Notes: generated by a model not told the origin, from the letters alone. A stretch of 64,000 nucleotides of DNA from Myxococcota bacterium (GCA_965223415.1 OZ245002.1:1248001-1312000); one strand, 5' to 3'. Numbered from the stretch's first letter, positions 139 to 54,979 are shown. Translations and numbers: made by a program.

Positions 139-2472
139 TCAGCTACTCCGTCGGAGGATTTCGTCGAGGATGTCCGGCTGCGTTGAGTGGCCTTCGCCGA
201 AGAGCCGCCGCCGGTCTTCGTCGGTCCAGCCCCGCCACGGGTAGAGCCGCATGTCGAGGCGTTCTTCAACAGGTACGTCGGGAGGCATCGGTACGTCGTG
301 CTCGTCGACCCAGTTGGCGTGGATGCGCGGAGCAAAGAGCAGCTCATCCCTGCGCACGAGGGCGACGAGGCCGTTGGTCGGGGAAGGCACGGGAATGCGA
401 AGCGGAAGCGACGGGTCAACTAGCGGCTCGGAGTGTCGGTTCGTGGTACCGCCATGGTTCCACGTCTCGGACCAATTCCATTGGTCCACGTAGTAGCCGC
501 CACCCGAGCTTCCACCTTCGTTCCACGAGAGGCCCTCCCGAACGTAGACCTGATTCCCGAACAGCCTGCTCACTTCCTGGGCGGTGTGTGCACAATCGAG
601 GCGGGTTACGAGATGCCAGCGGTGGAGGCCAAGGAACGCCTCCGCTTTGTCGCGAGAGCCGAAGGCCACAGCCAGCGCCGGGAAATCCTGAGCGGCGCTC
701 CAGACCGAGGTGTTGAGCTCTCGCCCTAGTGTCAGCAGGTCGTGGAGGGAGTCGAAGAACCCAGGGGGTGCCATCTGGAGCTCATCCACGAAAAAGAGAC
801 TCTTCGGGAAGTCGACGGTCGTTTCCGTGGTTGAAAGCCGCGCGTTCTTCGCGAACGTGAGCATCAATGAGGCGGCAATGTCCATGCTCCCCTTGGAGGC
901 GTCCATCGAGCGGCCGAGCACTACGGCGCGCTGCTTCGTCTCACGCCCTGCCCAGGCACGGAGCGAGAAACGGCGCCCAGCCTGGTAGTGCACCTCGGCT
1001 GCCTGGGCGTAGCTCTTCAAGCGGTCCAAATTGCTCGCGACCGTGGCACGCAAGTCGTTCCACCGATCTACTCGCGAGTTCTTGTTCTGCGTGAGCCAGT
1101 TGTCCACGAAGGCGCGACCGAACTCGGTAGCCACCAGCACCTTGTTGAAGCTCTGCTGTTCGGTGGCGCAGATGACATCCCGAAGCGAGAACTTGCCCCC
1201 CGAGAGCTCCATCACACCGAGGAGAACGGCCTTGGTTCCTTCGATTCCACCCCGCTCGAAGAAGTCCGCGTGGTGCTTCACGTCCTCTCCGGGAACCGTC
1301 TGACTGACGGCGATAGCGACAGCCTCAGCGTCCGCCTCCGAGAGAACATCGGAGGCGAGGTCCCACGAACTTGCTCGCGCGTCCAGGGGGAAGAGCGTGA
1401 CTATCTCATGGGCCGGAAGCAGAGAGTGGAGCCGAGCGTACGCACGCCTCTTAGGGTCGTAGAACATCGAGTACACACCCGGATGCGACGCGACACCCTT
1501 CGCGAGCGCCCACATCAACCTGGTCTTCCCACTGTCGGGCGCGCCGAGCAGGAGCCCGCCTCCCGCAATCAACGCACTCGGCGGCCAACGGAAACCCGCG
1601 ATGTTCACCCGCGGCTGCGGAGGCGCGTCACGAGGCTCCGAGGCCCAGTAGCCTGCGAGGTCCCGCCAGAGCGCGGGAATCGAAGTGAAGTAGGAACCCG
1701 CGATGTACCACGAGCATTCCTCGAGGTCGCACGGCATGCGGGCTTCCTGCCACTGGATGTGGGGGCACTCAGGAAGCCGTCCCTTGTCTCCCTCCGGAAA
1801 GAAGAGCGCGCGCCTTTCGAGAATCCACGAGTGGAACATCCAAACGGCGGAAACCACGAGCGGGAAGACGAGAAGCACCGGAGCGCCCGCTGCGCTCGAG
1901 AGCGCAGCGCCTGTAGCGGCGAGGGAAGCACCGCGAGGAAGGCGTCGGGGAAGACTGAACCAGACGACGATTCCACAGAGCGCCACAACGAGGGACTCGA
2001 AGATGAAGCTATGGACGCCGGTGGTCGCGTGCTCTTCGAACACCTCAAAGAGCAACGAAAGAGGGATGGAGAGAGCAAAGAGAGCCAGAAACGAAAAAGC
2101 CCCACGCACCACCCAGCGAGCGGAATCCTCCACCCAGTAGCGGTGATGGCGAGCGGTCCGGATTTCGTCCTGGAGCACATTGATTCGGCGCGTGAGGCGT
2201 GCGGGCTCGGCCGTCGGGTTCTCGAGCCAGGAGAGAAGCTCCGCTTCCGGCCGACGGTGCCACCGGAGAAGCTCCGAAGCGAGCGCTTCGATGATGGGCT
2301 TTGCTTCCGCCGCGTCGACGAAGAAGCCCGAGAGCTTCGCATCCTGGAGCGCCGCGTACGGCTCAAGGGGAATCCCGGTCTGCTCCGGGGAGTCCTTCAT
2401 GCGGACACCCACGCGCCCTTCCCAAGGGCGCTTGTAGATCCGCATTCCAGCGGCATCGAAGACCTCGCTCAT
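139..2472 (-). CDS. Type IV coupling protein-like ATPase (TrwB/TraD/VirD4 family) with N-terminal membrane segments
   Basis: Walker A GAPDSGKT, YDPK motif, WD motif, Walker B FFVDELQ, AAQD; several hydrophobic segments in the N-terminal third; ATGA overlap with the relaxase gene. Confidence 0.85.
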   Translation of the reverse strand: MSEVFDAAGMRIYKRPWEGRVGVRMKDSPEQTGIPLEPYAALQDAKLSGFFVDAAEAKPIIEALASELLRWHRRPEAELLSWLENPTAEPARLTRRINVLQDEIRTARHHRYWVEDSARWVVRGAFSFLALFALSIPLSLLFEVFEEHATTGVHSFIFESLVVALCGIVVWFSLPRRLPRGASLAATGAALSSAAGAPVLLVFPLVVSAVWMFHSWILERRALFFPEGDKGRLPECPHIQWQEARMPCDLEECSWYIAGSYFTSIPALWRDLAGYWASEPRDAPPQPRVNIAGFRWPPSALIAGGGLLLGAPDSGKTRLMWALAKGVASHPGVYSMFYDPKRRAYARLHSLLPAHEIVTLFPLDARASSWDLASDVLSEADAEAVAIAVSQTVPGEDVKHHADFFERGGIEGTKAVLLGVMELSGGKFSLRDVICATEQQSFNKVLVATEFGRAFVDNWLTQNKNSRVDRWNDLRATVASNLDRLKSYAQAAEVHYQAGRRFSLRAWAGRETKQRAVVLGRSMDASKGSMDIAASLMLTFAKNARLSTTETTVDFPKSLFFVDELQMAPPGFFDSLHDLLTLGRELNTSVWSAAQDFPALAVAFGSRDKAEAFLGLHRWHLVTRLDCAHTAQEVSRLFGNQVYVREGLSWNEGGSSGGGYYVDQWNWSETWNHGGTTNRHSEPLVDPSLPLRIPVPSPTNGLVALVRRDELLFAPRIHANWVDEHDVPMPPDVPVEERLDMRLYPWRGWTDEDRRRLFGEGHSTQPDILDEILRRSS

Positions 2473-4484
2473 CGGTTCTTCTCCAGGTCGAGCGCGTCTC
2501 GCTTCGGAAGGAGTGAGGGTCCCGGGGTCTTCTTCTCGCGCTCGGGTGTTCGCTCTAGCGACTCAAGGCGAACGGTTCTCTCGTCTCGGGCAAGGCCCGA
2601 AAACACGCTCTCGCGAAGCCTCGAGTCACCAAAGAGAAAAACCGATGCACCTCGCTCCGCCGCTTCTCGAAGGGTTGGAGCGAGGGTCTCCGGAAAGCAC
2701 CGCTCAGCTCCGGAGACGAGCACCGCTACGCCCTGAAGGGGCCGCCTTGCAGAGCGCGATAGGTCGAGCGGCGCTCGGTCACGCTGCCAAGCGTTGAATC
2801 GCGCCTTTCGTGCGGTCATGCCCGGAAGACCCAGAAGGGCACCGATGCGGTCCTGGATGGCGTCGGTCCGCGGAGTGACGAAGGGAGCACCCTTCGGATG
2901 GAGCCAACTGGGCCGGGCTCGGTTCCACTCGAGCGCGGCCTTGGCGGCCGTCACCACCGGGACCTTGAGCTCACGGCGTAGCCGGTCGCGCTCCTTTCGC
3001 GTGGCGGTGATGACCACCACCTTGTTGCCCGAACGCTCGAGCGTCTCCTTTGCGGCCCGAAGCACCTGGTCACGCTCCTTGGAGGCCGGAGCATCGAGCG
3101 CCGCGAATCCCTTCTCTTCACGAAAGAGGCCAAGGACGGCTCGAGAAACCGCGGGGTCTTTGACGCCGCGAAGACCCCGCTCGAGCGCGCGGCAGTGAAC
3201 AGGCTTTGCGTTCCGCTCGCGAAGCGCTTCGACGAATCGGGGAATCTCAAGCCGGGCCTTCTCGCGCTTCTTCCGGTCGAAGTAGAGCGTGGTTCCCTTG
3301 GGGGTCTCGGCGATGTATCGGCCCGAGGCGAGGAGCTGTCGGGTCCCGTAGAGAACCGCATCAGCGCCGAGCCGTGCAGGCGAACGCTTGGCCATCGTCT
3401 CGACGACGTCGCGCTCGGAAACGGGTGCCGAGCGCTTTGAAAGCTCGTCGACGGTTTCCGTCCTCGCGCGCTCGAGTCTCGAGGAGAGGGGCTCCACGTC
3501 ACGGCCCTTTTCCATCGCCTGCTCGCGGAGCTTCTCAATCGAGTGGCCGAGATCCCGTACCTGGTCCTGCCACTTCTCGATGGCGTCACCGAGGGTGAGG
3601 CCCTTGGTCACGTCTTTCGGGGGTCGGTCGACCGACTGGGCGATGAACCGCTTTTCTGCGTAGCTCGTCTGGCCGCGCACTTCCGCGATTCGGTTCACAT
3701 CCCGGCTTCGAGTCGAGAATTCATCCCGAATCTTGTCAAAGGCCGGGTTGCGCCAGCGGCCATCGTCAGAGCGAACAACCTCAAAGCCGAGCCGCTCCGC
3801 CAAGGCTGCGCACTCGGCAGAAAAGAGGGCTCGGGCGGCCGCGTGGTTTCGGTACATCTCGACAGCGTGAAGCGAGCCCGTGGAGCCATCTGGTCGAACA
3901 ACGCTACCCATCGCCAGGAAGTGGAGTCCGATGAGCGGGTCTCCGGCGCGGGAAAAGACGTCGAACGTGGCGGCGAAGGCGACCGAAGCGGGAACGACCC
4001 GCATCTCGCCGTCAATCTGTTGGCGGCTCTGGGCGAACTGCCCGAGGTACCCCGCGAACTTGCGACCGGCCGCCCAGACCCCTTCAACGAGCTCGGGAGC
4101 CTTCTCTGGAGCAACCACGAGAATGGCCGAAAGGTCCTTTTCGGTATCGGCGTGGAAGTCGTGCGCGCTCTGGCGCCATCCGCGACCGTCAGAGACCTTC
4201 CCAGCGTTTTGCGCTAGCGGCGTGGTCCCGTCTCGCGGGTCGAATCCGTCTAGCCAACGGCCGAGCTCCAGGTGGCGGACCCCCTGGCCATGGAGCCCGT
4301 AGACCTTCGAAGCCTCCCCGAACCAGCCCGTCGTCAGTGGTTCGGTCCGCTCGAGAAGGGGAACTTCTTCCTTCTCGACGTCGGGGCCGAGCTGGTAGTC
4401 GACCTGCGGGTTTCGCTCCGGTTCTTCACCGAGCCAGTAGCTGGGGTTCTGCCGGCCGGAGGCGGAGATCTTCTGGGGCGGCAC
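2469..4484 (-). CDS. MOBF/TrwC-like relaxase with truncated, degenerate helicase domain
   Basis: TrwC-like order of motifs: SYW..DYQ, GWFGEASKVYGLHG, DGFDPRDG, SRAGDP..H, RPDG, LGFEV, FSTRS, RPPK; C-terminal helicase-like remnants (GNKVVVIT, TAAK, LFGDSRL). Confidence 0.8.
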   Translation of the reverse strand: MPPQKISASGRQNPSYWLGEEPERNPQVDYQLGPDVEKEEVPLLERTEPLTTGWFGEASKVYGLHGQGVRHLELGRWLDGFDPRDGTTPLAQNAGKVSDGRGWRQSAHDFHADTEKDLSAILVVAPEKAPELVEGVWAAGRKFAGYLGQFAQSRQQIDGEMRVVPASVAFAATFDVFSRAGDPLIGLHFLAMGSVVRPDGSTGSLHAVEMYRNHAAARALFSAECAALAERLGFEVVRSDDGRWRNPAFDKIRDEFSTRSRDVNRIAEVRGQTSYAEKRFIAQSVDRPPKDVTKGLTLGDAIEKWQDQVRDLGHSIEKLREQAMEKGRDVEPLSSRLERARTETVDELSKRSAPVSERDVVETMAKRSPARLGADAVLYGTRQLLASGRYIAETPKGTTLYFDRKKREKARLEIPRFVEALRERNAKPVHCRALERGLRGVKDPAVSRAVLGLFREEKGFAALDAPASKERDQVLRAAKETLERSGNKVVVITATRKERDRLRRELKVPVVTAAKAALEWNRARPSWLHPKGAPFVTPRTDAIQDRIGALLGLPGMTARKARFNAWQRDRAPLDLSRSARRPLQGVAVLVSGAERCFPETLAPTLREAAERGASVFLFGDSRLRESVFSGLARDERTVRLESLERTPEREKKTPGPSLLPKRDALDLEKNR

Positions 4485-4864
4485 TACTTCCCCCGCCTCT
4501 TTCGACGAAGCGTCTCCATCACGAAGGGTTTCACCTTGGCCTTAGGCCAGGCAGGCGCAGGCTCAGTTGCAAGACGTTCCATCAAGGCCTCCGCGACGTC
4601 TGCCATCCCGGCCTGAAACCGTGCGAGGTCCCGGTCGCCCATCTCCACGACGCTGGAGAGACGTGCGAGCTCCTTCGCGACGGCTTCCAGAGCCTCGAGG
4701 ACGACCAGGGGAGCCTCAGGTCCGGAAGGACCACCTTCGAGGGCTTCAGCCAGAAGCCTCGTAGCAAGAGAAGCGCGAGTCGTACCGAGCCTCTCCGCCT
4801 CCGCGCGAAGAGCCTGGTCGAGCCCCTCCGGGACAGTGACCGAGAAGCGAACAGCGCCACTCAC
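4484..4864 (-). CDS. Ribbon-helix-helix (CopG/TrwA-like) relaxosome accessory protein
   Basis: GTG at 4864 with GGAG upstream; VRFSVTVPEGLDQALRAEAERLGTTRASLATRLLAEAL is an RHH pattern followed by a coiled coil; TAG/GTG overlap with the relaxase start. Confidence 0.7.
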   Translation of the reverse strand: MSGAVRFSVTVPEGLDQALRAEAERLGTTRASLATRLLAEALEGGPSGPEAPLVVLEALEAVAKELARLSSVVEMGDRDLARFQAGMADVAEALMERLATEPAPAWPKAKVKPFVMETLRRKRRGK

Positions 4865-5370
4865 CTCGAGCGCTCCAGAGCAGGTGCGCGGAAGCAGAGA
4901 CCAGGCGAACAAAGGACGCAAGAGGCCGACGAACCGGAGACCGAACAACAAACCGGATGCAGCTCGCGCTGCGAAAGGGAATCACTGCCGAAACGCCGCC
5001 TAGCGCCCGCCCGAAGGGGTCTATTGTTGAGGTGATTCAGGTGAGCATCCGGACATGAATCGCGAGGAATCACCTCATCGGGGTTTGAGTCCATGTGGCG
5101 ATGCTCGTCGTGGTGGTGCAGCACCAGGTCGTAGAGAAGCGCCACGGTGGCGAGCTCCGCGACGTTCGGCGCGCGGTGGGTTGGCGCTCGCGGGACCGGG
5201 TCGCCCGTAGACGTGGGCACAAGGACGCCTAGGCCAAGCACGGCGACCAAGGTGCGGAAGGTGAGCTTCGAGACGCGGGAGCCGACATCCACAGCTGTAG
5301 CCGCATCGTCTGCAGCACGAATGACCTCGCCTGCGCGACCGAACCGAAAGAGCTCTCGAAGGCGCTGCAC
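4861..5370 (-). CDS. Hypothetical protein with one hydrophobic segment, His-rich and Cys-rich tail
   Basis: 169-aa ORF overlapping its neighbours at both ends (TAGTG and GTGA). Confidence 0.45.
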   Translation of the reverse strand: MQRLRELFRFGRAGEVIRAADDAATAVDVGSRVSKLTFRTLVAVLGLGVLVPTSTGDPVPRAPTHRAPNVAELATVALLYDLVLHHHDEHRHMDSNPDEVIPRDSCPDAHLNHLNNRPLRAGARRRFGSDSLSQRELHPVCCSVSGSSASCVLCSPGLCFRAPALERSR

Positions 5371-5603
5371 TAGTGGTCCCCCCGCTCGCGGTGAAGCTCT
5401 TCAGCGATGAGGTCGGAGAGGATTCGTCCTGCATCTGAGAGATTCCGAGCGAGTTCGTTCCTTCCCTCTCGGGCAAGCTCAGCAGAAACGCGGTAGCTCG
5501 CGCTCCTTGCGGCACGGAGCCTCAGGAGGCGCACCCTCTCACGAGGCAGTGCTTCCGCGAGCGAGGTCTTCGGAGGCGAGTAGCGGCGATAGCGGTGGGT
5601 CAT
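5370..5603 (-). CDS. Small hypothetical protein
   Basis: 77-aa ORF, ATGA overlap upstream and TAGTG overlap downstream. Confidence 0.55.
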   Translation of the reverse strand: MTHRYRRYSPPKTSLAEALPRERVRLLRLRAARSASYRVSAELAREGRNELARNLSDAGRILSDLIAEELHRERGDH

Positions 5604-5824
5604 GACAGGGAATCCGGCCCGCCGGGGACCTCATGCTGGGGCTCGACGAGACCTCCACGAAAGCGCTTGGTGCGGCTGGGAACGAGAGACTGCGGGCTAG
5701 CGACCACCCGCTGGAGATTCATGAGCTCGTGCGGGGTCTCGTGGAGGTTCACTTCGAGGGTCGCGACGCGCGCTAGCAGCATCCCGGCGAGTTCCCCTTC
5801 CAGGTCGTCGTCTTGGGCGGTCAC
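5600..5824 (-). CDS. Small hypothetical protein
   Basis: GTG at 5824 forms a GTGA overlap with the upstream stop (alternative ATG at 5839); ATGA overlap downstream. Confidence 0.5.
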   Translation of the reverse strand: MTAQDDDLEGELAGMLLARVATLEVNLHETPHELMNLQRVVASPQSLVPSRTKRFRGGLVEPQHEVPGGPDSLS

Positions 5825-6165
5825 TCCGGTAGTTCCCATCTTTCGGGGTCGTCGGTTCCAGCGAGCAAACCGCGGCTCGCCGTCTCGAGACCCTCGGCCG
5901 TCTCGATTCGGAACTGCAGGTCACACACTCGATGAAGCAGCGCATTCGACTGGCGATACACCTCGTCGAGCTCGTGGCTCCAGTACTGCACTGCAGACGG
6001 AGCCAGAGGAGAGAGCTTCTCGAGGGTTTCGACGCTGCGGCGCAAGAGCAGACGGGTCGTGCGAAGTGTGTCTCGGGTGAGGTCAGACCTCACGCGGACG
6101 TCATTGAGCGGGTCCGGCAGTGGGAGCCGAAGGAGTTGGCGCTTGTCGGTGCGTGACTTGGGCAT
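5821..6165 (-). CDS. Hypothetical helical/coiled-coil protein
   Basis: 114-aa ORF with strong GAGGAG RBS 7 nt upstream of the ATG. Confidence 0.65.
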   Translation of the reverse strand: MPKSRTDKRQLLRLPLPDPLNDVRVRSDLTRDTLRTTRLLLRRSVETLEKLSPLAPSAVQYWSHELDEVYRQSNALLHRVCDLQFRIETAEGLETASRGLLAGTDDPERWELPE

Positions 6166-6192
6166 GGGTAGTCTCCTCGTGTCTGGGATGGG

Positions 6193-6441
6193 TCACTTCT
6201 TCGCGACGACGCTTACGAGCGCGCGGAGACGCCGTTCAAGGTCGTCGAATCGAGCATCAATGAGCGCGGCCAGCTCGCTGTTCGTGGGGTGATCGTCGAG
6301 CACGGCAGCAGCGCCGATCTCGAGCACCTGGCGAGCAGCAACAGCCACGGGCTTGTCTTCGTGGATGGCGACCTTCTCGATCACCTGAAGGGTTCGGGCG
6401 TCGACGCGGAGCGACAGCTGGACGCGACGGACGCGGCTCAT
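6193..6441 (-). CDS. Ribbon-helix-helix DNA-binding protein
   Basis: MSRVRRVQLSLRVDARTLQVIEKVAIHEDKPVAVAARQVLEIG is a beta-alpha-alpha RHH pattern; first gene of the mob operon. Confidence 0.65.
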   Translation of the reverse strand: MSRVRRVQLSLRVDARTLQVIEKVAIHEDKPVAVAARQVLEIGAAAVLDDHPTNSELAALIDARFDDLERRLRALVSVVAKK

Positions 6442-6679
6442 CGAGCACCCCGCGGGCGGTCGACGGCACAGCAGACGTCCGGAAGCACGGGGTCGAACTC
6501 GCCGGAATCGAGCGACCAAGGCGGACCGACGGGGCCGTGGATAGTTGAACCGGACGGTCTAGTACTCGGGGGCTTGGGCAAGTCGAACACCGACGCCGGC
6601 ATGGGTAGCCGGGCATCCTTGTGCTCGCCTCCGAAGTGCCCAAGCGCCGCGCTCGGTTTCCGGTCTGGCGGCCGAGCAG

Positions 6680-6703
6680 AAAAAATGCCTCAAGCGCGGA
6701 GGC
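6680..6703 (-). terminator. Putative intrinsic terminator after the 444-aa ORF
   Basis: Minus strand GCCTC-cgcgctt-GAGGC followed by ATTTTTT; the stem is only 5 bp. Confidence 0.35.
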
Positions 6704-6726
6704 TCGTCAAGCGGCGCCGCCGAAGC

Positions 6727-8061
6727 CTATGTGACGCCCGCTTGCCAGGCCCTGATGTGCTCGAGGATTCGGGCTGCAGTCTTGTCGAATGGAGGGTGAA
6801 ACACCCGAGGGTTGTGGCGGGACACGAGCCAGGTCACCCGGCTGGCACTGTAGGCGGGAGCGTAGTTCCAAGGTTCCTGAATCAACCACTGCTTGGGCAG
6901 CAGCTCAGGATCGGGGCTGGTCCAAACGTTGACGCCCAGCTCCTTTCGAAGTCGCTTTCGAGAGCCGACCGACCGAATCGAAATCACGACATCCAGACCG
7001 TCGGGGAGGTCCTTCTCGAGCAGCGAGAGAATTCCACCTGCGTAGTCGATGGGGCGGGCGTTCGAATAGCTGACTGCGTGCTGGTCGCGGACGACGTCAG
7101 GGTAGTTGTGGGGCGCGGGCCCGGTTCCTGTCAGGCGAGTGACCGGAAGCCCGCCGAGAGGAAGGTCGCGGACGACACCAGACGTCCTCAGAGCTTCGTT
7201 GAGTCCAGGCACGGGGTGTTTTGTGAAGTTTCGCAGCTTCCAGAAGCCAGTCAGCCAGGACGCACGCGCGAGGATCGAGCCGCGGTGCTCGTTGTTCCCA
7301 GAAAGAACGCCCGCGACCTGCAGCGAGTGGTCTTCCCTTTCAACCATGAATCGAACTCGCTGGACCGCTGTCGTTTCGGCTACATGCGTTCCGAAGAAGC
7401 AGCGGCTCCGCGAGTTGTACATCACCGTCATTTGATCCGCGGGATTCGCGCTGAGGCGGTGCGCGGGAGGGCCTACCGGCCAGGGTCGTTCGAGCGCGGG
7501 AACCGGCTGTTCGATATCGAGCCTAATTCTTGGCTGCTTGAACGCACTTGCGGACATGTCAACGTCGGCGTGGAACGTGGCGAACGGGTACTGGCCAACC
7601 AAGAGAACCCTAGGCCGCGTCACGTCAGCGACTTGTACGAGCACGCCAGAATATTCGAGGCAAGCGGGCGGCTTGAAAAAGGCATTGCGAGCTAGTCGCA
7701 GCCCGCGCCAAGCGAGGCGCGCTACGAGTCGAGGTAGTGAGCCGCTGGTCTCAACGCCAGTCCTACCTCGGGCGACGATCACGGGGATATTTAGGCGTGT
7801 TTCGCCATCCAAGAGCTGCAATAGAAGCGTGTCGCGGAGCCCGACAGAAATGAGCTTGTGGGTGTACGAAAGCGTCCGAGTCTCACCCGGGACGAGCGAC
7901 TCAAGGTACGGGGTAGGAATCCTGAGGGGCTCGGGAATGTGAAATCGCAGATCAGTCAAGGGGGAAACCAGGGCTAGGGGTGAACTAGTGTCGTGTCCCA
8001 GAGGTCCTGTGCGAATCCTACTTGCGTGAGGCCGCCCCTCGCCGTCAAGAGGCGGACTCAA
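6727..8061 (-). CDS. Hypothetical protein (444 aa) with faint resemblance to Rep_trans initiators
   Basis: Long ORF in a visibly lower-GC segment, where chance ORFs of this length are less likely; no confident family motif. Confidence 0.55.
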   Translation of the reverse strand: MSPPLDGEGRPHASRIRTGPLGHDTSSPLALVSPLTDLRFHIPEPLRIPTPYLESLVPGETRTLSYTHKLISVGLRDTLLLQLLDGETRLNIPVIVARGRTGVETSGSLPRLVARLAWRGLRLARNAFFKPPACLEYSGVLVQVADVTRPRVLLVGQYPFATFHADVDMSASAFKQPRIRLDIEQPVPALERPWPVGPPAHRLSANPADQMTVMYNSRSRCFFGTHVAETTAVQRVRFMVEREDHSLQVAGVLSGNNEHRGSILARASWLTGFWKLRNFTKHPVPGLNEALRTSGVVRDLPLGGLPVTRLTGTGPAPHNYPDVVRDQHAVSYSNARPIDYAGGILSLLEKDLPDGLDVVISIRSVGSRKRLRKELGVNVWTSPDPELLPKQWLIQEPWNYAPAYSASRVTWLVSRHNPRVFHPPFDKTAARILEHIRAWQAGVT

Positions 8062-8408
8062 TAGGAAGCGAACGGCTGGGACACGACACTAGAACCTCTC
8101 CCCTAGCGGCGAAGAACCTTCTGGACCAGTAGGGTAGTTGCATCCGGATTGCCCTCCAAGTGGAGGTCTCCGGCCCGCAACGTCCCCTACTGGCGGTGCA
8201 CCGCGTCCTAGGTTCTCGCAGCGCAGAGCGCGCGAAGGCCCCTGTTCGACGGAGACCAATCAACAGCAAGCTGCTGACCCCAAACCAGGCTCAAGGGTCC
8301 GTGTACTACGGGAAACCCCTAAATGCCCGCGACCGCAAACCCGTCTGGGCGCTTCGACTCAAGAACGAGGAGCACAGCAGGACGGATGACCCTTGTTGCA
8401 CGTTCCGC

Positions 8409-8585
8409 GCGGTGGAGTCAAGTCGACGTAAACTGGACCGCGGCCTGGTGCGCACGCATCGGGTCATCGCGCACCGGCTCTCGGCCGTGCGGCACGCGAT
8501 TGGCTTCCTCGTGCTGGCTGACGAAGGCATCGCCGACGGGGGCACGCATGACCAACTCCTGCAGCCGAGGGCGCATGCGCACCTA
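8409..8585 (+). pseudogene. Remnant of the C-terminus of an ABC exporter ATP-binding domain
   Basis: RTHRVIAHRLSAVRHAIGFLVLADEGIADGGTHDQLL matches the VIAHRLSTVR...GTHDELL switch-His region; no Walker A or signature upstream. Confidence 0.6.
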
Positions 8586-8789
8586 GTTACGGACGGGCGA
8601 GCATCTGACCGGGGGTCTAGGGCCCGGACGAACCGAACCTGGGCCTTGGTCTTGGACAGCGAGCCTCTCCCGAGAGGCGCCGCCCAGTGCCGTCCACAGA
8701 CCTGGTGCCGTCGAAACGACCCTCCTGCGCCGCGCTATGCCGCGCTCTGCCACCCGTTAGGAGCTATCCCCGCGCTTCTTCTTGCGTCG

Positions 8790-8842
8790 GCCCCAGGCTT
8801 CGAACCTGGGGGTCGGGGGTTCGAATCCCTCCCGGCGTGCCA
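8790..8842 (+). repeat. 3'-half tRNA-Arg(TCG) fragment, att-like site
   Basis: Anticodon arm CCAGG-CTTCGAA-CCTGG, variable loop GGGTC, T arm GGGGG-TTCGAAT-CCCTC, acceptor 3' strand CCGGCGT-G-CCA; no D arm or 5' acceptor strand upstream. Confidence 0.85.
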
Positions 8843-8848
8843 TAGATT

Positions 8849-10152
8849 CCGCGGTCCATTCCGGGCACATGGTTTACAGATCATTCCGGGGACATGGTTG
8901 ACACTTTCTGGGGCCCGAAGGGGTTCGGGGCGGGCTCGATCCGGCCCTCGTCCTGGTCGAAGAAGCCCAGATCGAAGTCCAGGAAGCTGACGAGCCAGAC
9001 CTGGTCGTCGACCTCGCGGAGGCCCACGGTCTGGCCCGCGAAGACGGTGCTGAGATTGATCTTGCGGCGTCCGAGGCAGATCCGACCGCACTGGGTGACC
9101 CGGACGGATCGGTCGTGGAACGGGTACTCGGGCTCCCCGGGCGGCTCGTAGGCGCGCGGCGAAGGTGTATAGACGTCGCCGGGGTACGCCCCGTCCAGGG
9201 CCTGGTGCGGTCGCTCGTGATTGTAAACGCCTGTGAACCGGTCGAAGCGCTCCTGCTGCTGCAGGAAGTTGAACGACGCGGGCTTGGTGGCTTCTTTCTT
9301 GAGCGTGAGATGCATGCGTTCGTGCCGTCCGTTCTGCTGGGGGCAGCCCGGCTTGATGCGCTGGATCTGGATGCCGAGCTTGAGCCACCAGATCGAGAGC
9401 TTCGAGAGACCGAAGAGTGCGTTGGGCGACGCGAAGGGAACCCCGTTGTCGGTGCGGATCGCCGTCGGCAGCCCGAAGTCCTTGAAGGTCCTCTCGAAGA
9501 CGGAGAAGGCGAAGTCCGACCGCGTCGACGAGAGACCCTCGCAGGCGAGTAGGTAGCGCGTTCGGTAGTCGGTGATCGTCAGCGGGTAGCAGTACTGCTT
9601 GCTGCCGAGCATGAACTCGCCCTTGAAGTCTGCGCACCACAGGCCGTTCGGAGCGTGGGCCGCCTTGAGCTCCGTGCCCTTGGCCTTGTGGCGTCTCCGC
9701 TTCCGCCGCTTGACCAGTCCGTTGCGATCCAGCACGGCATGCACCGTGCTCACCGCGGGCGGTTTGATCATCGGGAAGTCGCGGATCAGCTTGTCGCGGA
9801 TCTTCGGAGCCCCCCAGGAGGGGTACTCCTTCTTGATCCCCAGGATCGCGCGTTCGACCTGGTACGGCAGCTGGTTGGCGTGGCGATAGGGCCGGCGGGA
9901 GCGGTCGTTCAGGCCCTCGAGGCCGCAGGTCTTGTAGCGCTCGTAGATCTTGTACCCGGTGACCCGGGAGATCCCGAACTCGCGGCAGAGCGGCGCCATC
10001 TTCTCGCCATCGAGGAGCCGGGCCACGAATCGGAGTCGTTCGCCCACCTTGCAACACTCCTTCCACGGCACCTTTGCTCCCCTCGCAGAGCGCCAGAAGT
10101 GTTACCTATGTGCCCGGAATCAAGTGTCACCCCTCTCTCGGGAGGCTCGCGG
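8849..10152 (-). mobile_element. IS481-family insertion sequence
   Basis: Imperfect terminal inverted repeats built from ATTCCGGG(C/G)ACAT.G.T.ACA units (8858-8904 versus 10099-10140) flanking the transposase; exact ends uncertain. Confidence 0.85.
8881..10071 (-). CDS. IS481-family DDE transposase
   Basis: MPWKE N-terminus, HTH CREFGISRVTGYK, WCADFKG, TDNGVPF, QNGRHERMH, YNHERPHQAL. Confidence 0.95.
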   Translation of the reverse strand: MPWKECCKVGERLRFVARLLDGEKMAPLCREFGISRVTGYKIYERYKTCGLEGLNDRSRRPYRHANQLPYQVERAILGIKKEYPSWGAPKIRDKLIRDFPMIKPPAVSTVHAVLDRNGLVKRRKRRRHKAKGTELKAAHAPNGLWCADFKGEFMLGSKQYCYPLTITDYRTRYLLACEGLSSTRSDFAFSVFERTFKDFGLPTAIRTDNGVPFASPNALFGLSKLSIWWLKLGIQIQRIKPGCPQQNGRHERMHLTLKKEATKPASFNFLQQQERFDRFTGVYNHERPHQALDGAYPGDVYTPSPRAYEPPGEPEYPFHDRSVRVTQCGRICLGRRKINLSTVFAGQTVGLREVDDQVWLVSFLDFDLGFFDQDEGRIEPAPNPFGPQKVSTMSPE

Positions 10153-11514: not shown

Positions 11515-11678
11515 TGTCATTTCTCACGGGCATGACTCACCTTTTCTCACGGGCATGACCCAGGCCTGACCGCGGTTTTCTCACGAGCATGACCCACCCC
11601 AGATGGGGGGGGCTCAGGAGGAGGCCGGTCCCGTGGCCGACCCAGGCCATTCTGCGGCGCCAGAGGAGGCGCAGGCAG

Positions 11679-13391
11679 ATGGCGTATCGCGAGGTCGGCA
11701 TGTGGGAGATTCTGGAGGTGCTCCGCCGGGCGCACCGAGGCGAGAGCCAGGTGGCGATGGCGCGGGCCACGGGGCACACGCGCAAGACGATCCGGCGCTA
11801 CGTGCAAGTCGCCGGGGAGCTGGGCTGGGTCGCCAGGGGGCCGAGGGAGCCGGATGAGGCCCTGGCCCAAGGGGTGGCGGCTCGGGTGCGGCCTGTGCCC
11901 ACGCAGCGCGACGCGGGAGAGAGCGAGGCGCAGCTGGCGCCGCATGCCGACCGGATCCGAGCGTGGCTCCAGCCCGAGGCGGGTGGCCGAGGACTGCGGC
12001 TGACGAAGGTCTACGACCTGCTCGGGCGCGAGGGCGTGCGCGTCCCCTACAGCTCGCTCCACCGCTTCGCGGTCCGCCACTGCGGGTTCCAAGACCGGCG
12101 CCGGGTGACGGTGCGCATGGCGGCGGTGGCCCCCGGCGAGCTCGCCGAGGTCGACTTCGGCCGCCTCGGCATGGTCTGGGATCCGGAGACCGGGCGCCGC
12201 CGCACCGTTCATGCCCTGATCGTCACCCTCGTCCATAGCCGCCACCAGTACGTCCACGTGACCTACGGCCAGAAGCTCCCCGATCTGCTCGAGGGGCTCG
12301 AGGACGCCTGGGCGTTCTTCGGCGGGGTCCCGGTGCGCGTGGTGCTGGACAATCTGAAGGCGGCCGTCACGAAGGCCGACCGCTACGAGCCGATCTTCCA
12401 GCGCACCTTCGCCGAGTACGCCCACTACCGCGGCTTCGTCATCGATGCCGCCGTGCCTCGGCATCCCAAGGGCAAGCCCCACGTCGAGCGCCAGGTGCAG
12501 TACGTGCGCGAGCGCTTCTTCCGTGGCGAGCAGTGGCTGGGACGCGACCACGTGCAGCGCGAGGCCGCGCGCTGGTGCCTGGAGGTCGCCGGCCAGCGCA
12601 CTCACGGGACGACGCGCAAGAGGCCCCTGGCCGTCTTCGAGAACACGGAGAAGCCGGCTCTGCAGCCCCTCGTGCGCCCGCGCTTCGATCCGCCCACCTG
12701 GGCCGAGGCGAAGGTCCACCCCGACCACCACGTCCAGTTCCAAAAGGCCTTCTACACCGTGCCCACCCGCCACGTGGGCAAGCGCGTCTGGGTTCGCGGC
12801 GACTCGAAGCTCATCCGCATGTACGTCGACGGCGAGTGCATCAAGACCCACGAGCGCGTGGACCCTGGCTGCCGCTCCACCGACTACCACGACTATCCGC
12901 CCGAGCGTGCCCCCTACGCCATGCGGGACCCGGAAGCGGCGATCCGCCAGGCGCGCGACCAGGGGCCTCACATTGGGCGCTTCGCCGAGAAGCTCCTGGC
13001 CGGCCCCTTCCCCTGGTCCAAGCTCCGCCAGGCCCAGAAGCTGCTTCGCCTCGGCCACAAGTACGGCCTGCCGCGCGTCGACGCCGGCTGCCGCAGGGCC
13101 CTCGCCTTCGACCTCATCAACACGAAGCGCCTCGAACGCATCGTGGCCGAAGGCATCCAGCCGCTCGGCGACCCCAGCACCCCCGGACAGCTCCTGCTCC
13201 TGCCGCCCCGTTTCCTGCGCCCGCAAGGGCACTTCACCCACCCCAACGACAACCCCGACAAGGAGACCACCCCCCATGACGACCGAGATCAACCCGTCCC
13301 TCAAGACCCTGCTCAAACGCCTGAAGCTCTCGGGCATGCTGGCCACGCTCCCCGATCGCGTGGCCTACACCCGGAAGACGAAGCTCCCTGA
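11679..13391 (+). CDS. istA: IS21 transposase IstA
   Basis: MAYREV start with GGAGG RBS; HTH RKTIRRY; EVDFG, LDNLK, KGKPHVERQV, RTHGTT. Confidence 0.93.
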   Translation: MAYREVGMWEILEVLRRAHRGESQVAMARATGHTRKTIRRYVQVAGELGWVARGPREPDEALAQGVAARVRPVPTQRDAGESEAQLAPHADRIRAWLQPEAGGRGLRLTKVYDLLGREGVRVPYSSLHRFAVRHCGFQDRRRVTVRMAAVAPGELAEVDFGRLGMVWDPETGRRRTVHALIVTLVHSRHQYVHVTYGQKLPDLLEGLEDAWAFFGGVPVRVVLDNLKAAVTKADRYEPIFQRTFAEYAHYRGFVIDAAVPRHPKGKPHVERQVQYVRERFFRGEQWLGRDHVQREAARWCLEVAGQRTHGTTRKRPLAVFENTEKPALQPLVRPRFDPPTWAEAKVHPDHHVQFQKAFYTVPTRHVGKRVWVRGDSKLIRMYVDGECIKTHERVDPGCRSTDYHDYPPERAPYAMRDPEAAIRQARDQGPHIGRFAEKLLAGPFPWSKLRQAQKLLRLGHKYGLPRVDAGCRRALAFDLINTKRLERIVAEGIQPLGDPSTPGQLLLLPPRFLRPQGHFTHPNDNPDKETTPHDDRDQPVPQDPAQTPEALGHAGHAPRSRGLHPEDEAP

Positions 13392-51518: not shown

Positions 51519-52940
51519 TCAGCCCGCGGCCAGGCCCGCCGCCTTCCGCAGCTCCGCGAAGGAGTGCTCCGTCGCCCGGACCATATCGTGGAGGTCGGGC
51601 AGCTGGTCCCAATCGGCAGAGAAGCCCCAGCTGAGCACGCCGTCGTAGCTGAAGAGCGCGATGCCGAGGCCCATGGCGCCCATCAGCGGCACGTGGGGGT
51701 GGATCTCCAGGAGCGCCGCCTCCATCAGGAAGAGGGGCACGCGGGGGCCGGGGACGTTGGTCACCACCAGGTTGAAAGGCGTGCCGAGGACGGCGAGGCG
51801 CGCGCCTAGCGAGAGCAGGCCCGAGCCGGTCCACTCGGTAGCCTGGGTCAGGATCTCGGCGCCCTGGGCACGCTTCGACTTCTTCATCTCGTCGGTGGCG
51901 CGGCAGACCGCCTCCAGGCGCGCGAGGGGATCGGGCTCGTCGATCGGCAGGTCGAGGTTCCAGGCGGACACCCGGTTGCCGAGATCCCCCCGCTCGTCGT
52001 CGCTGCGAACGCTCACCGGAGCCATCACGCGAAGGCACAGACCGTTCACCGGCAGGCCCCGATCGTGGCTGAGAAAACGGCGCACGGCGCCGGCGGTTAC
52101 GGCCAGCACCACGTCGTTGACGGTTCCCCCTACGGCCCGACGCACCTCCTTGACCTCCGAAAGCTGCGTGGGCGTCCAGTCGAGGCGCCGGTGGGGACCG
52201 ATGGGCTCGTTGAACGGCAGGGCCTGGGCGCCGCTCATGTCTCGGAGCATCTCGCCCAGGGCGCCCAGGCGCTCCTGGAGCTGGTGGCGGGCATCGTCCT
52301 CGTCCCGCAGCACCCGCCCGAGCTCCGAGGCGAGCCGCGCCGGCGCCGAGACCACGCGGGCCACTTCACCGGCCGCGAGGGCCACGGCGCCGGGCTGCGC
52401 CCGCGGCTGCCAGCGGCGGATCGGATCCGGCTTCTCCTGGGGCTCGCTCGTGAGCAGTGCCGAGATCAGCTCGGAGCCGGAGACGCCGTCCACCATGCAG
52501 TGGTGCACCTTCGAGTGCACGGCGATGCGATCGCCCTCGAGCCCCTCGATCACCCACAGCTCCCAGAGGGGCTTCTCCCGGTCCAGACGCTGGGAGAAGA
52601 TCCGGCCGACCATGCGCTTCAGCTGGCGCTCGTTGCCCGGGTGGGGGAGCCGGGAGTGGCGCACGTGGTAGCGGATGTTGAAGGTCGGATCGTCCACCCA
52701 CACCGGATGGCCCTCGATGGGGGTGCGGGCCAGCCGCTGCCGGTAGCGCGGGATGCGGTCGAGGCGGGAGAGCACGTACTCCTGGATGCGCTCGATGTCG
52801 AGGGCGCCGTCGTCCAGGCGCAGCGGCCGGGCATCGTGGATCTGTGTCGAGGCCACGTGCATGGCGCACTCGGGCTGGGCGTCCTCGTAGACGAGGAAGG
52901 AGTTGTCGAGCTGGGTGAGCCGATCGTAGGACTGGGCCAT
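51519..52940 (-). CDS. Wax ester synthase/DGAT-family O-acyltransferase
   Basis: MHV, WVDDP.F, LDREKPLWE, HHCMVDG, GNRVS, TNVPGP. Confidence 0.95.
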   Translation of the reverse strand: MAQSYDRLTQLDNSFLVYEDAQPECAMHVASTQIHDARPLRLDDGALDIERIQEYVLSRLDRIPRYRQRLARTPIEGHPVWVDDPTFNIRYHVRHSRLPHPGNERQLKRMVGRIFSQRLDREKPLWELWVIEGLEGDRIAVHSKVHHCMVDGVSGSELISALLTSEPQEKPDPIRRWQPRAQPGAVALAAGEVARVVSAPARLASELGRVLRDEDDARHQLQERLGALGEMLRDMSGAQALPFNEPIGPHRRLDWTPTQLSEVKEVRRAVGGTVNDVVLAVTAGAVRRFLSHDRGLPVNGLCLRVMAPVSVRSDDERGDLGNRVSAWNLDLPIDEPDPLARLEAVCRATDEMKKSKRAQGAEILTQATEWTGSGLLSLGARLAVLGTPFNLVVTNVPGPRVPLFLMEAALLEIHPHVPLMGAMGLGIALFSYDGVLSWGFSADWDQLPDLHDMVRATEHSFAELRKAAGLAAG

Positions 52941-52955
52941 GATTCTCCGCCTTCC

Positions 52956-54359
52956 TCAGAGCTTGCGCAGGATCTCGAACTCCCGCTCCACGTCGCCGAC
53001 GAACTCGTGGAGATCCGACAGGGCGTCCCAGTCCGCGTTGAAGCCCCAGTGCAGGACGCCGTCGTAGCTGAGCAGGGCCGTCCCCAGCGCCTGGTTCTCG
53101 AATAGCGGCACCAGCGGATACGACTCGAGCATCTTCGCACCGTTCAGGAAGACCGGGAACTGGGGCCCCGGGACGTTCGTGACCACCATGTTGTAGGAGC
53201 GTTGGGAAGCAGCGAGCCGGCTCATGCCCGTGAGCAGCGTGGTCGAGGTCCAGTCGCTGAGCTCCTCGAGCACCTGGGTGCCCTGGGCCTGGCCGGACTG
53301 CTTCAGCTCGCGGGTCTCCTCGATCACGCGCTGGACGCGGCGCTGGGGATCGTTCTCGTCCACGGGAAGCCGCGTCACCAGCATCGAGACGCGGTTGCCG
53401 AGAGTGCCGCGCTGGTCCTCGGTGCGCGTGCTGACCGGGACGAACACGCGGAAGTCGATGTCGTCCGTGTCGACACCGTGGTGCGTCAGGAAGCGGCGCA
53501 CGGCACCGCTCACGCAGGCGAGCACGACGTCGTTGATCGTGCCTCCGAACTTCGACTTCACCTCCTTCACCACGCCGAGATCAAAGCGGGTCCAGTCGAA
53601 GCGTCGGTAGGGACCGATCGGCACGTTGAGGGGCGTCTCGGAGGCCGGCGAGAAGGCCTTGCCGAGGCCCTCGACGAAGCCCGTCGCCGCGTGGGACGCG
53701 GATTCGAAGCTCTCCTCCGGGCGCCGCAGCGATTGCGCCAGGTCGGACATCACGCGGCCGGGCAGCCCGATCCGGCGCCGCAGCTCGCCGCCCAGGAGCT
53801 CGAGGGCGCCCGGCGCCGTGCGGGGACGCCAGGGAGCGTGGCTCTCGGTCGGGCGATAGTCGCGATCCGGCCCCATGAACGCCGCCAACAGCTCGACGCC
53901 GGAGATCCCGTCGATCAGGCAGTGGTGCACCTTCGAGATCACTGCGAAGCGGCCGTCCTCGAGCCCTTCGACGAACCACAGCTCCCACATCGGCTTCGAG
54001 CGGTCGAGCTTCTGGGACATGATCCGGCCGGCCAGGCGCTTCAGCCTGCGCTCGTCGCCGGGAATCGGAAGCGCCGTGTGCCGCAGGTGGTAGAGAAGGT
54101 TGAATCGATCGTCGTCGATCCACACCGGATGACCCGTGATGGGGACCTGGGAGAGCTTCTGCCGGAAACGCGGTGCGCGGCGAAGGCCGGCCTCGGCCAA
54201 CGCCAGGATCTGGTCGAAGTCGATCCCGCCGCCGGGCGTGGCCAGGGGCCCCGGATCGAAGATCGCGACGGTCCCCACGTGCATGTGCACGCCCTCGGAT
54301 TCAAGCTCGAGGAAGGTCGTGTCGAGGGCGGTCAGCCGGTCGTAGTGCGTGTAGGGCAC
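52956..54359 (-). CDS. Wax ester synthase/DGAT-family O-acyltransferase
   Basis: GTG start with GAGG RBS; MHVG, LDRSKPMWE, HHCLIDG, TNVPGP. Confidence 0.95.
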   Translation of the reverse strand: MPYTHYDRLTALDTTFLELESEGVHMHVGTVAIFDPGPLATPGGGIDFDQILALAEAGLRRAPRFRQKLSQVPITGHPVWIDDDRFNLLYHLRHTALPIPGDERRLKRLAGRIMSQKLDRSKPMWELWFVEGLEDGRFAVISKVHHCLIDGISGVELLAAFMGPDRDYRPTESHAPWRPRTAPGALELLGGELRRRIGLPGRVMSDLAQSLRRPEESFESASHAATGFVEGLGKAFSPASETPLNVPIGPYRRFDWTRFDLGVVKEVKSKFGGTINDVVLACVSGAVRRFLTHHGVDTDDIDFRVFVPVSTRTEDQRGTLGNRVSMLVTRLPVDENDPQRRVQRVIEETRELKQSGQAQGTQVLEELSDWTSTTLLTGMSRLAASQRSYNMVVTNVPGPQFPVFLNGAKMLESYPLVPLFENQALGTALLSYDGVLHWGFNADWDALSDLHEFVGDVEREFEILRKL

Positions 54360-54571
54360 GGACGCCTCCTCTTCCCCGGAGACATTGTGCAGGTTTCGCG
54401 CCCAGCCCGCCCCCGCTGGCTGGCGCCCTCGGAGCCGCCCGGGCGCCCCCACTGCACCCTTTCGCCTCGAAGCGGGGCGTCGCGCCTCGTCTCCTTCCGG
54501 GGCGCCCCCCGGCATCGCCCTCGGGAGCTGGCACGGAACCTGCGTCTTGGGGAGGCCGAGGAGGATCCGCC

Positions 54572-54979
54572 GTGAAGCCCTGCGCACCGTTGATCGTCGG
54601 CCTGGCCCTCGGTCTCGCCCTGTCCGGAGCCGCCGCTGCCGACGAGGGTGAGCGCACCGGCGAGCTCGAGTTCACGAAGTACTGCAGCTCCTGCCACGGA
54701 GCCAACGCCACCGGCGTCGGCCCGGTCGCGGAGGTGCTCGACCCGAAGCCCGCAGATCTCACCCGCATCGCTGCACGTCGCGAGGGCGTGTTCCCGGAGG
54801 TCGAGATCCAGCGGATCATCGACGGACGCGATCCGGTGCGCGCTCACGGTGCCAAGCAGATGCCCGTCTGGGGAGAGATCTTCCGCGGCGAGCTCGGCCC
54901 GGGCCCGGCAGGCGAGTCCGCCGCCCGCGGCAAGGCGTGGCTGATCATCCGTTACCTGAAGACGATCCAGGTGGAGTAG
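54572..54979 (+). CDS. Exported monoheme cytochrome c
   Basis: AGGAGG RBS, signal peptide, CSSCH, PADLT, distal-Met MPVWG. Confidence 0.9.
   Translation: MKPCAPLIVGLALGLALSGAAAADEGERTGELEFTKYCSSCHGANATGVGPVAEVLDPKPADLTRIAARREGVFPEVEIQRIIDGRDPVRAHGAKQMPVWGEIFRGELGPGPAGESAARGKAWLIIRYLKTIQVE

Follow-up and report, generated by a model that had tools for sequence, protein, structure and literature searches.

The stretch of DNA analysed here (the window) comprises 64,000 nucleotides from a Myxococcota bacterium (GCA_965223415.1, OZ245002.1:1248001-1312000). It includes a long operon on the minus strand that runs from about window position 6519 through a small gene with a ribbon-helix-helix (RHH) segment, a relaxase-like gene of the TrwC type (P0001) and a gene for a type IV coupling protein (T4CP, P0002) (Table 1). 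Our analysis of P0001 revealed a member of a short MOBF branch that apparently lost one histidine of the HUH metal motif under what looks like continued selection. We consider the chances about even that P0001 serves a mobilizable island as its relaxase and still nicks DNA with a remodelled metal site.

The open reading frame (ORF) of P0001 has zero internal stops over its 671 amino acids (aa), as a first reading made from the sequence alone (the sequence-only reading) had claimed. In 2000 shuffles of its bases the minimum was two in-frame stops, with a mean of 11.7 when codon positions were kept and 16.8 when they were not. Stops would arise from 209 of 6039 possible single substitutions (3.5%), and none is present in the 671 codons. 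GC content at codon positions 1/2/3 is 0.72/0.49/0.74 and coding-like in each window of 100 codons. The overlap with both neighbours was also borne out: the GTG start has one base in common with the stop codon of the ORF before it (TAGTG), and at the other end the stop codon of P0001 runs into the start codon of the T4CP (ATGA). A 7101-nt contig of sequencing run X1 matches window positions 1722-8822 identically; it is not independent, because X1 may be the source sample. Sequencing runs with the P0001 gene contained identical pieces only and zero variant copies. Long chance ORFs do exist in this GC-rich DNA, for example one of 582 aa on the opposite strand (988-2736), and P0001 might be such a chance ORF, or codon 186 an assembly or sequencing error. 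We regard such an artefact as extremely improbable, given the strong profile matches described below, the coding-like codon-position GC, the three bases that separate codon 186 from a His codon and, even if not independent, the identical X1 contig.

The Pfam model TrwC (PF08751) matched residues 52-311 of P0001 with 92.2 bits (E 5.7e-26, cut-off 25), which is the profile check that the sequence-only reading had called for. A profile of the 11-member subfamily described below aligned to the sequence of the TrwC structure 1omh over nearly the whole trans-esterase domain (E 8.6e-48). By these matches, a TrwC fold of P0001 is supported. HMMER, run exhaustively against 1.84 billion cluster representatives, yielded 925 matches at E<=1e-3 and four at E<=1e-30, P0001 itself included, with the nearest relative being 35% identical. 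The ten nearest full-length relatives (P0007-P0013 and P0015-P0017) are 570-680 aa long with at most 35% identity, whereas canonical relatives are relaxase-helicases of about 800-1150 aa. All eleven members share a layout of TrwC domain, linker and a C-terminal domain without Walker A that carries a conserved insert; Pfam detected TrwC in 11/11 and AAA_30 in 9/11 of them. The attribute "full-length" that had been given to P0001 has to be withdrawn, as it ends after the first half of the helicase.

Members of this subfamily were rarely encountered. Each of the ten relatives stems from a metagenome assembly and is the sole member of its cluster, and neither two pattern scans of one genome per species nor a scan of viral contigs gave a match to the subfamily. 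Among PLSDB plasmids we found 39 weak matches, all below 60% identity (24-29% among the 25 matches listed), with 0/39 spanning 80% of the P0001 query. The host genome has one copy of the relaxase; there was no match in any of 60 related genomes and one in 400 further genomes of the phylum, this being the canonical long form in a 1049-aa frame. Word-indexed searches for closer homologues returned only P0001 itself and weak canonical matches, the Atlas search with P0001 gave MobF-type clusters only, and a metagenome scan gave two loci, L008 and L009. Judged by these searches, P0001 is a member of a rare, metagenome-only, short MOBF/TrwC branch. A limited search of the open-access literature yielded neither a G-x-H relaxase nor a half vestigial helicase, which is not proof of absence.

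Active-site columns were counted over the first 400 residues of the 150 best representatives (P0001 counted), aligned with MAFFT and also aligned full-length; TrwC residue numbers were taken from the chain numbering of the phmmer alignment with 1omh. The strings quoted in the sequence-only reading are all present, namely SYW at residue 15, DYQ at 29, HDFHADTEKDLS at 108, FDVFSRAGDPLIGLH at 174, DAPASKER at 464 and VLVSGAE at 588, and they align to the TrwC motifs as stated there (phmmer against 1omh, MAFFT of the 150, and hhalign for the Walker columns). The tyrosine motifs differ from the canonical form but are not lost. The MOBF motif is YY-X(5-6)-YY, and Y18 of pKM101 TraI is its first, catalytic Tyr (PMC9868005). 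P0001 has a single Tyr per site (Y16-W and Y30-Q) with a spacer of 12 residues between the two motifs versus 5-6, and other subfamily members likewise have single tyrosines. Loss of the nucleophile was rejected as an explanation of SYW and DYQ, because the relevant first Tyr of each pair is kept. Asp109 is the activating Asp of motif II (Asp in 143/150 sequences), and Arg179 and Lys116 are also retained.

The metal site differs, too. In pKM101 TraI the metal is bound by H149/H160/H162, and D84 bonds H162 and Y18 (PMC9868005; for the active site also PMC2943615); TrwC likewise has the HUH motif and a third His (PMC4176350). In both the phmmer and the MAFFT alignment the TrwC residues H150/H161/H163 correspond to D175/G186/H188 of P0001, which is not a three-histidine site (H..HxH). 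The column of Asp175 has His in 135, Glu in eight, Asp in three and Gln in three of the 150 sequences; an acidic first ligand is a recurrent natural variant (E/D/Q in 14/150), with Glu or Asp in 5/11 subfamily members (Glu in P0007, P0013, P0016 and P0017). His188 stands in a column with His in 150/150. At Gly186 the column has His in 149/150 and Gly in P0001 only, and the HUH pair is kept in 10/10 subfamily relatives. The HUH strand of P0001 reads G-L-H with no other His within it; the same strand has an extra His (HxHxH) in P0007, P0009 and P0016. The only truly singular change in the active site of P0001 is the Gly at the first HUH His. Of the motif changes previously seen as peculiar to P0001, this one stood (1/150); the helicase motifs, the single tyrosines and the acidic first ligand proved to be traits of the subfamily. 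The metal and active site of the whole short clade is unusually plastic.

Table 1. Features of the P0001 operon and of the attR end of the island (window positions; counts refer to the alignment of 150 sequences)
Feature	Position	Strand	Evidence or remark
T4CP P0002, 777 aa	139..2472	-	TrwB_AAD_bind 61.9 bits (cut-off 20.5), TraG-D_C 36.3 bits
Relaxase-like gene P0001, 671 aa	2469..4484	-	Open frame; Pfam TrwC; subfamily profile vs 1omh
TrwC-type trans-esterase domain, residues 1-315	3540..4484	-	Profile matches
Tyr16 codon TAC, equivalent to TrwC Tyr18	4437..4439	-	Tyr in 133/150; subfamily profile aligns to Y18
Tyr30 codon TAC, second tyrosine	4395..4397	-	Tyr in 137/150
Motif II, residues 107-119, AHDFHADTEKDLS	4128..4166	-	D109 kept; H111 and D113 new
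Motif III, residues 173-188, TFDVFSRAGDPLIGLH	3921..3968	-	Metal triad D175, G186, H188
Gly186 codon GGA at first HUH His	3927..3929	-	Differs from CAY at all 3 positions
Walker-less half helicase (N-terminal and 1A part of superfamily 1B, SF1B), residues 440-650	2535..3167	-	hhalign
Subfamily-specific insert, residues 535-577 (..TDxxQD..AWQRDRAPLDLSR)	2754..2882	-	Conserved in subfamily
Small upstream gene, RHH segment residues 34-72	4484..4951	-	RHH_5; likely start GTG at 4864
77-aa gene, same operon	5370..5603	-	42% identity over 66 aa to L009 2400-2645, E 2.6e-9
attR, copy of tRNA-Arg(TCG) 3' 50 nt plus 11 nt	8793..8853	+	61-nt direct repeat

The motif-II strand of P0001 is also unusual. 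His, Asp and Glu make up six of its 13 residues, more than in any other of the 150 sequences (runner-up 4), and the triplet at positions 109/111/113 reads D-H-D in P0001 only and D-T-S in 111/150. Since these three residues alternate along the strand, they should face the same side. In the HUH fold the motif-II strand and the HUH strand are antiparallel neighbours. If so, and if Asp109 pairs with His188, the register suggests that residue 111 should face residue 186; we infer the Asp109-His188 pairing from that of D84 and H162 in pKM101 TraI (PMC9868005). The new His would then lie opposite the lost one, which has been replaced by the smallest residue, and this is suggestive of a possible compensation. 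A more specific but doubtful version is that P0001 is a working relaxase in which the metal His moved from position 186 to the adjacent strand (T111 to His, S113 to Asp), giving a D175/H188/H111(D113) centre. Were it true, P0001 would be the first natural enzyme of the HUH superfamily with a demonstrated shift of a ligand from one strand to another, and screens based on the HxH motif would miss active relaxases.

The C-terminal domain of the subfamily aligned to canonical MOBF helicases in hhalign with a probability of 99.0% (E 6.7e-18), the template being made from 60 of the 79 canonical sequences that bear Walker A. The match is confined to template columns 47-216 of 500, which represent the N-terminal and first RecA-like part; nothing in the subfamily corresponds to the second half of the helicase. 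Where canonical relatives have Walker A and B, P0001 reads DAPASKER and VLVSGAE, Walker A was found in 0/11 subfamily members, and Pfam AAA_30 matched residues 452-645 of P0001 with 23.6 bits, under the cut-off of 27. P0001 thus belongs to a short lineage with a vestigial half helicase and is no complete MOBF enzyme with motifs altered in place, since hhalign shows the first half only and the Walker motifs are missing; an SF1B helicase with Walker A and B it does not have. TraI_hel_assoc_N (PF22232) matched two of the 11 members and the L008 homologue. In the insert, which canonical helicases lack, D545, R568, P572 and L573 are invariant in 11/11 members, and its end reads AWQRxRAPLDLSR. The nearest parallel described for such a domain is the vestigial helicase of F TraI, which is without Walker A and B and binds single-stranded DNA (ssDNA; PMC5422253).

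The sequence-only reading had named two signs of simple decay, namely close homologues with the canonical His residues and neutral divergence of this copy. The first was found for the HUH pair, which the relatives keep; P0001 is without sign of the second. Among 48 positions conserved in at least 85% of 139 canonical sequences P0001 retains 31, and the ten subfamily relatives retain 26-47. With the other members it shares a mean identity of 0.26 over the relaxase domain (others 0.26-0.31) and 0.33 over the C-terminal domain (others 0.24-0.34), each value falling within the range of the others. P0001 and P0007 are sisters in the trees of both domains (SH-aLRT, the Shimodaira-Hasegawa-like approximate likelihood ratio test, 89 and 91, one alignment), and in the same alignment P0001 has a shorter relaxase end branch (1.03) than the HUH-retaining P0007 (1.39). 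P0001 would not be a case of simple decay, because there is no internal stop, 31/48 conserved positions are kept and motif II has gained a His and an Asp. Gly186 itself is, by its codon, most readily read as an old change and not as decay, because GGA is three substitutions away from CAY while the frame has stayed open.

The T4CP next to the relaxase is intact-looking, as had been noted, with Walker A (GAPDSGKT) at residue 310 and Walker B (FFVDE) at residue 560, both conserved in the homologues of L009 and L008. Its N-terminus has three hydrophobic segments, so that profile, membrane segments and Walker A and B all identify it as a type IV coupling protein of the TrwB/VirD4 type. The small gene upstream of the relaxase scored 19.8 bits on RHH_5 (E 6.7e-4), under the Pfam cut-off, and 20.6 bits on a BrnA-type antitoxin model. 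L009 has a 126-aa gene in the position of the RHH gene, with a similarity that is not significant (E 0.61). In L009 the relaxase (4613-6325) is followed by the T4CP (6265-8721), and likewise in L008 (3-1145 and 1994-3772). Three small genes of the operon, encoding proteins of 241 aa (E 3.4e-21), 123 aa (E 1.2e-10) and 77 aa, have homologues in L008/L009. The common order of relaxase and T4CP together with these three further genes supports the integrity of the module and speaks for a relaxase in use.

Beyond the T4CP, seven more genes of the operon follow on the minus strand (genome 1,243,913-1,248,140, corresponding to window -4087..140). They encode a protein with two transmembrane segments, a probable lipoprotein and five small soluble proteins, and none of the seven gave a Pfam or NCBIfam match; for the 241-aa protein the Atlas gave no usable match either. 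The 241-aa and 123-aa genes among them recur beside the relaxases in L009 and L008. These seven family-less genes could hide a novel apparatus.

A repurposed mobilisation module or an undescribed system, as had been proposed, finds no support. RHH protein, relaxase and T4CP form an ordinary DNA-processing set at one end of an island of 39.8 kb, which is integrated in tRNA-Arg(TCG), the relaxase lying 4.3 kb from the right (attR) end. The intact tRNA gene is located at genome 1,217,012-1,217,088 (L003:9012-9088), and the partner of the attachment (att) repeat at L003:9039-9099 overlaps it, with one mismatch in 61. GC content between the att copies is 0.58-0.66 (about 0.62) and outside about 0.70, and GC at third codon positions (GC3) is about 0.7 within the island versus 0.85-0.9 outside. 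The island carries a tyrosine integrase beside the tRNA, ParA, a DUF2726 protein, a second integrase, an IS3-type transposase, a TIR protein and ParE, as well as a complete Gabija pair (L005:3710-5668 and 5669-7426, genome 1,225,710-1,229,426; PADLOC scores 708.6 bits for GajA and 705.6 bits for GajB). An integrase by tRNA-Arg, flanking direct repeats, a relaxase and low GC are the marks of an integrative element, and the island is probably an integrative, mobilizable one. It looks like an integrative mobilizable island because it has a DNA-processing module of its own and no VirB4 was found.

Further genes were seen on and around the island. After the Gabija pair comes a ResIII/DEAD helicase of 1087 aa, which matches PbeA and Cas3 weakly. 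The TIR protein (L004:103-1233, minus strand) has 376 aa and a C-terminal TIR domain (PADLOC PDC-S66, ThsB-like matches), and the ParE toxin gene (L004:1393-1991, plus strand) has a small upstream partner. The integrase ORF beside the tRNA (L003:8112-10280, minus strand) encodes 722 aa with the catalytic domain at residues 178-359 (Phage_integrase). Its frame has no stop before attL and continues through the tRNA in antisense into host DNA, so that the C-terminal tail of the integrase would differ between the integrated and the excised state. An ORF fragment at window 8160-8990 (plus strand), with residues 86-137 like the C-terminus of an MsbA/HlyB-type ABC transporter (E 7e-6), is probably a gene remnant just inside attR. 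Directly outside attR lies an IS481-family transposase gene (window 8881-10071, minus strand; rve, HTH_32, LZ_Tnp_IS481), and 1.5 kb past it a gene for a 600-aa protein with a Mu-transposase C-terminal domain (window 11589-13391, plus strand), both with host-like GC3. The remaining window contains ordinary metabolism genes; two adjacent wax-ester synthase/DGAT genes (window 51519-54587, minus strand; WS_DGAT_cat 212 and 225 bits) lie among ordinary oxidoreductase genes. As candidates for the origin of transfer (oriT) we rejected the inverted repeats that precede the RHH gene, among them an interleaved pair at 5028-5106, because they were unconvincing. The region folded no better than shuffles (z 0.38), the 9-10-mers shared with L008 and L009 look like chance, and a promoter and terminator scan stayed at background level.

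If P0001 nicks, the system might work as follows. The RHH protein and the relaxase would assemble on the origin of transfer, where Tyr16 would attack the nic site, activated by Asp109, which would also hold His188. The metal would be held by His188, Asp175 and either water or a His111/Asp113 ligand in place of the lost His 186. The half helicase would not hydrolyse ATP and may serve in ssDNA binding and/or in docking to the T4CP, like the vestigial domain of F TraI, so that in this proposal unwinding would have to come from a host helicase. The coupled T4CP would pass the complex to a type IV secretion system, and the latter would have to come from another element, since none was recognised in the genome.

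A number of findings weigh against a P0001 that still nicks. On the stricter equivalog model NCBIfam MobF it scored 86.8, under the cut-off of 100. Dual-histidine metal binding is called universal in the HUH superfamily (PMC9973303), and in the open-access literature we found no precedent for a non-ligand Gly at the first HUH His. The activating Asp is constant in only 6/10 subfamily relatives, and the retained catalytic residues are weaker evidence than they look because this Asp varies within the subfamily; in the other four relatives it is absent from the alignment. The putative proximity of His111 and Gly186 is deduced from the general topology of the HUH fold. When canonical sequences were included, P0001 had one of the two longest end branches (2.63, median about 0.9), and without P0007 its end branch was 3.65 (median about 0.9). 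The ratio of rates in the relaxase and the C-terminal domain was 1.1 and 1.3 in P0001 and P0007 and 0.36-0.93 in the other nine members; a faster relaxase domain in these two would fit a loosened or changed catalytic constraint. The VirB4 model PF03135 had 0 matches in the 5.83-Mb genome, AAA_10 had none over the cut-off, and no island ORF has a VirB4-type domain, though a VirB4 might be too divergent for these models. No second T4CP and no MobA-type or other relaxase was detected in the genome either, so that transfer from this host is not evident. An oriT was not identified.

Some of these findings may point to a dead or crippled relaxase that folds, binds oriT or ssDNA and docks to the T4CP without nicking, and is kept as an adaptor, regulator or exclusion factor. 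Such a protein would explain why Gly replaces a His that is invariant in 149/149 other sequences, and it would agree with the faster evolution of the relaxase domain of P0001 and P0007 relative to the C-terminal domain and with the better conserved half helicase (mean pairwise identity of P0001 0.33 vs 0.26 in the relaxase domain). Selection for some function is evident from the open frame and from the coupling to the T4CP. However, an element with a T4CP and without a working relaxase could not transfer itself, and there is no second relaxase on the island or in the genome. In addition, Y16, Y30, D109 and H188 were all retained on a very long branch, and His111 and Asp113 on the strand of the activating Asp are unexpected from mere loss. 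We hold a non-nicking P0001 to be possible, on the unlikely side. Both options of the sequence-only reading, namely a relaxase whose metal site is Asp/His and an adaptor that does not nick, are still live, within a changed framing.

The absence of VirB4 and of other conjugation genes from the genome would also be consistent with a relic, i.e. an island stranded in a host without mating apparatus, in which the relaxase is an early-stage pseudogene with a frame still unhit. The relaxase was not found in the 60 related genomes, with the single canonical long match among 400 others of the phylum, an IS3-type element has entered the island while an IS481-type transposase gene lies directly beyond attR, and the terminal branch of P0001 is the longest. 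Yet its Gly codon is three substitutions away from His while 671 codons stayed open, conserved positions are retained as in the relatives, and the branch is no longer than that of the sister. The att repeats differ at only one position in 61, and the T4CP and the overlapping start and stop codons are intact, so that a relic appears improbable to us.

Detection and typing of relaxases rely on the tyrosine and three-histidine motifs, with the HUH pair regarded as essential. Nicking by P0001 would mean that the requirements on the metal site are less strict than has been assumed, and the remodelled strand would illustrate how such a site can be rebuilt. Without nicking, P0001 would be a natural example of a relaxase scaffold retained for binding DNA or for docking to the T4CP. 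The short branch adjoins its own T4CP in all three loci seen, which suggests a relaxase design that outsources unwinding.

Compared with known systems, the island resembles integrative mobilizable elements, which carry a relaxase and a T4CP and no mating-pair apparatus. It has an integrase, att repeats at a tRNA, relaxase and T4CP, defence cargo and no VirB4 that was found; it differs by the seven family-less genes downstream of the T4CP, and mobilisation by a helper is putative here. In R388 the genes are arranged trwA-trwB-trwC, TrwA being an RHH protein, and both TrwC and P0001 sit with an RHH-type accessory gene and a T4CP. TrwC, the MOBF prototype (1omh, 2cdm), has the same trans-esterase domain by profile, and the Tyr, the Asp and the last His are conserved. 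They differ in the metal triad, which is H150/H161/H163 in TrwC and D/G/H in P0001, in the tyrosines, where the YY..YY pairs of TrwC correspond to single residues 12 apart by spacer in P0001, and in the helicase, which is complete and active (SF1B) in TrwC but a Walker-less half in P0001; identity is about 25% or less.

The TraI proteins of pKM101 and pCU1 (8a1b, 3l57) belong to the same fold family (PMC9868005, PMC2943615), and P0001 keeps their Asp, Tyr and last His but misses two of the three His. Circovirus Rep shows that HUH-superfamily enzymes can be active when the third ligand is acidic and one HUH His is exchanged; it binds Mn2+ by Glu44, His52 and Gln54 (HUQ motif; PMC9973303). In Rep the replacing residue is a Gln, still a ligand, at the second His, whereas in P0001 it is a non-ligand Gly at the first, and circovirus Reps are of a different class of the HUH superfamily than P0001. 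F TraI (PMC5422253) and the subfamily each have a domain that derives from a helicase and is devoid of Walker A and B. In F TraI, however, this is a complete vestigial helicase of four subdomains that is followed by an active helicase, whereas P0001 has the N-terminal/1A half only, with a subfamily-specific insert of 43 aa and no active helicase.

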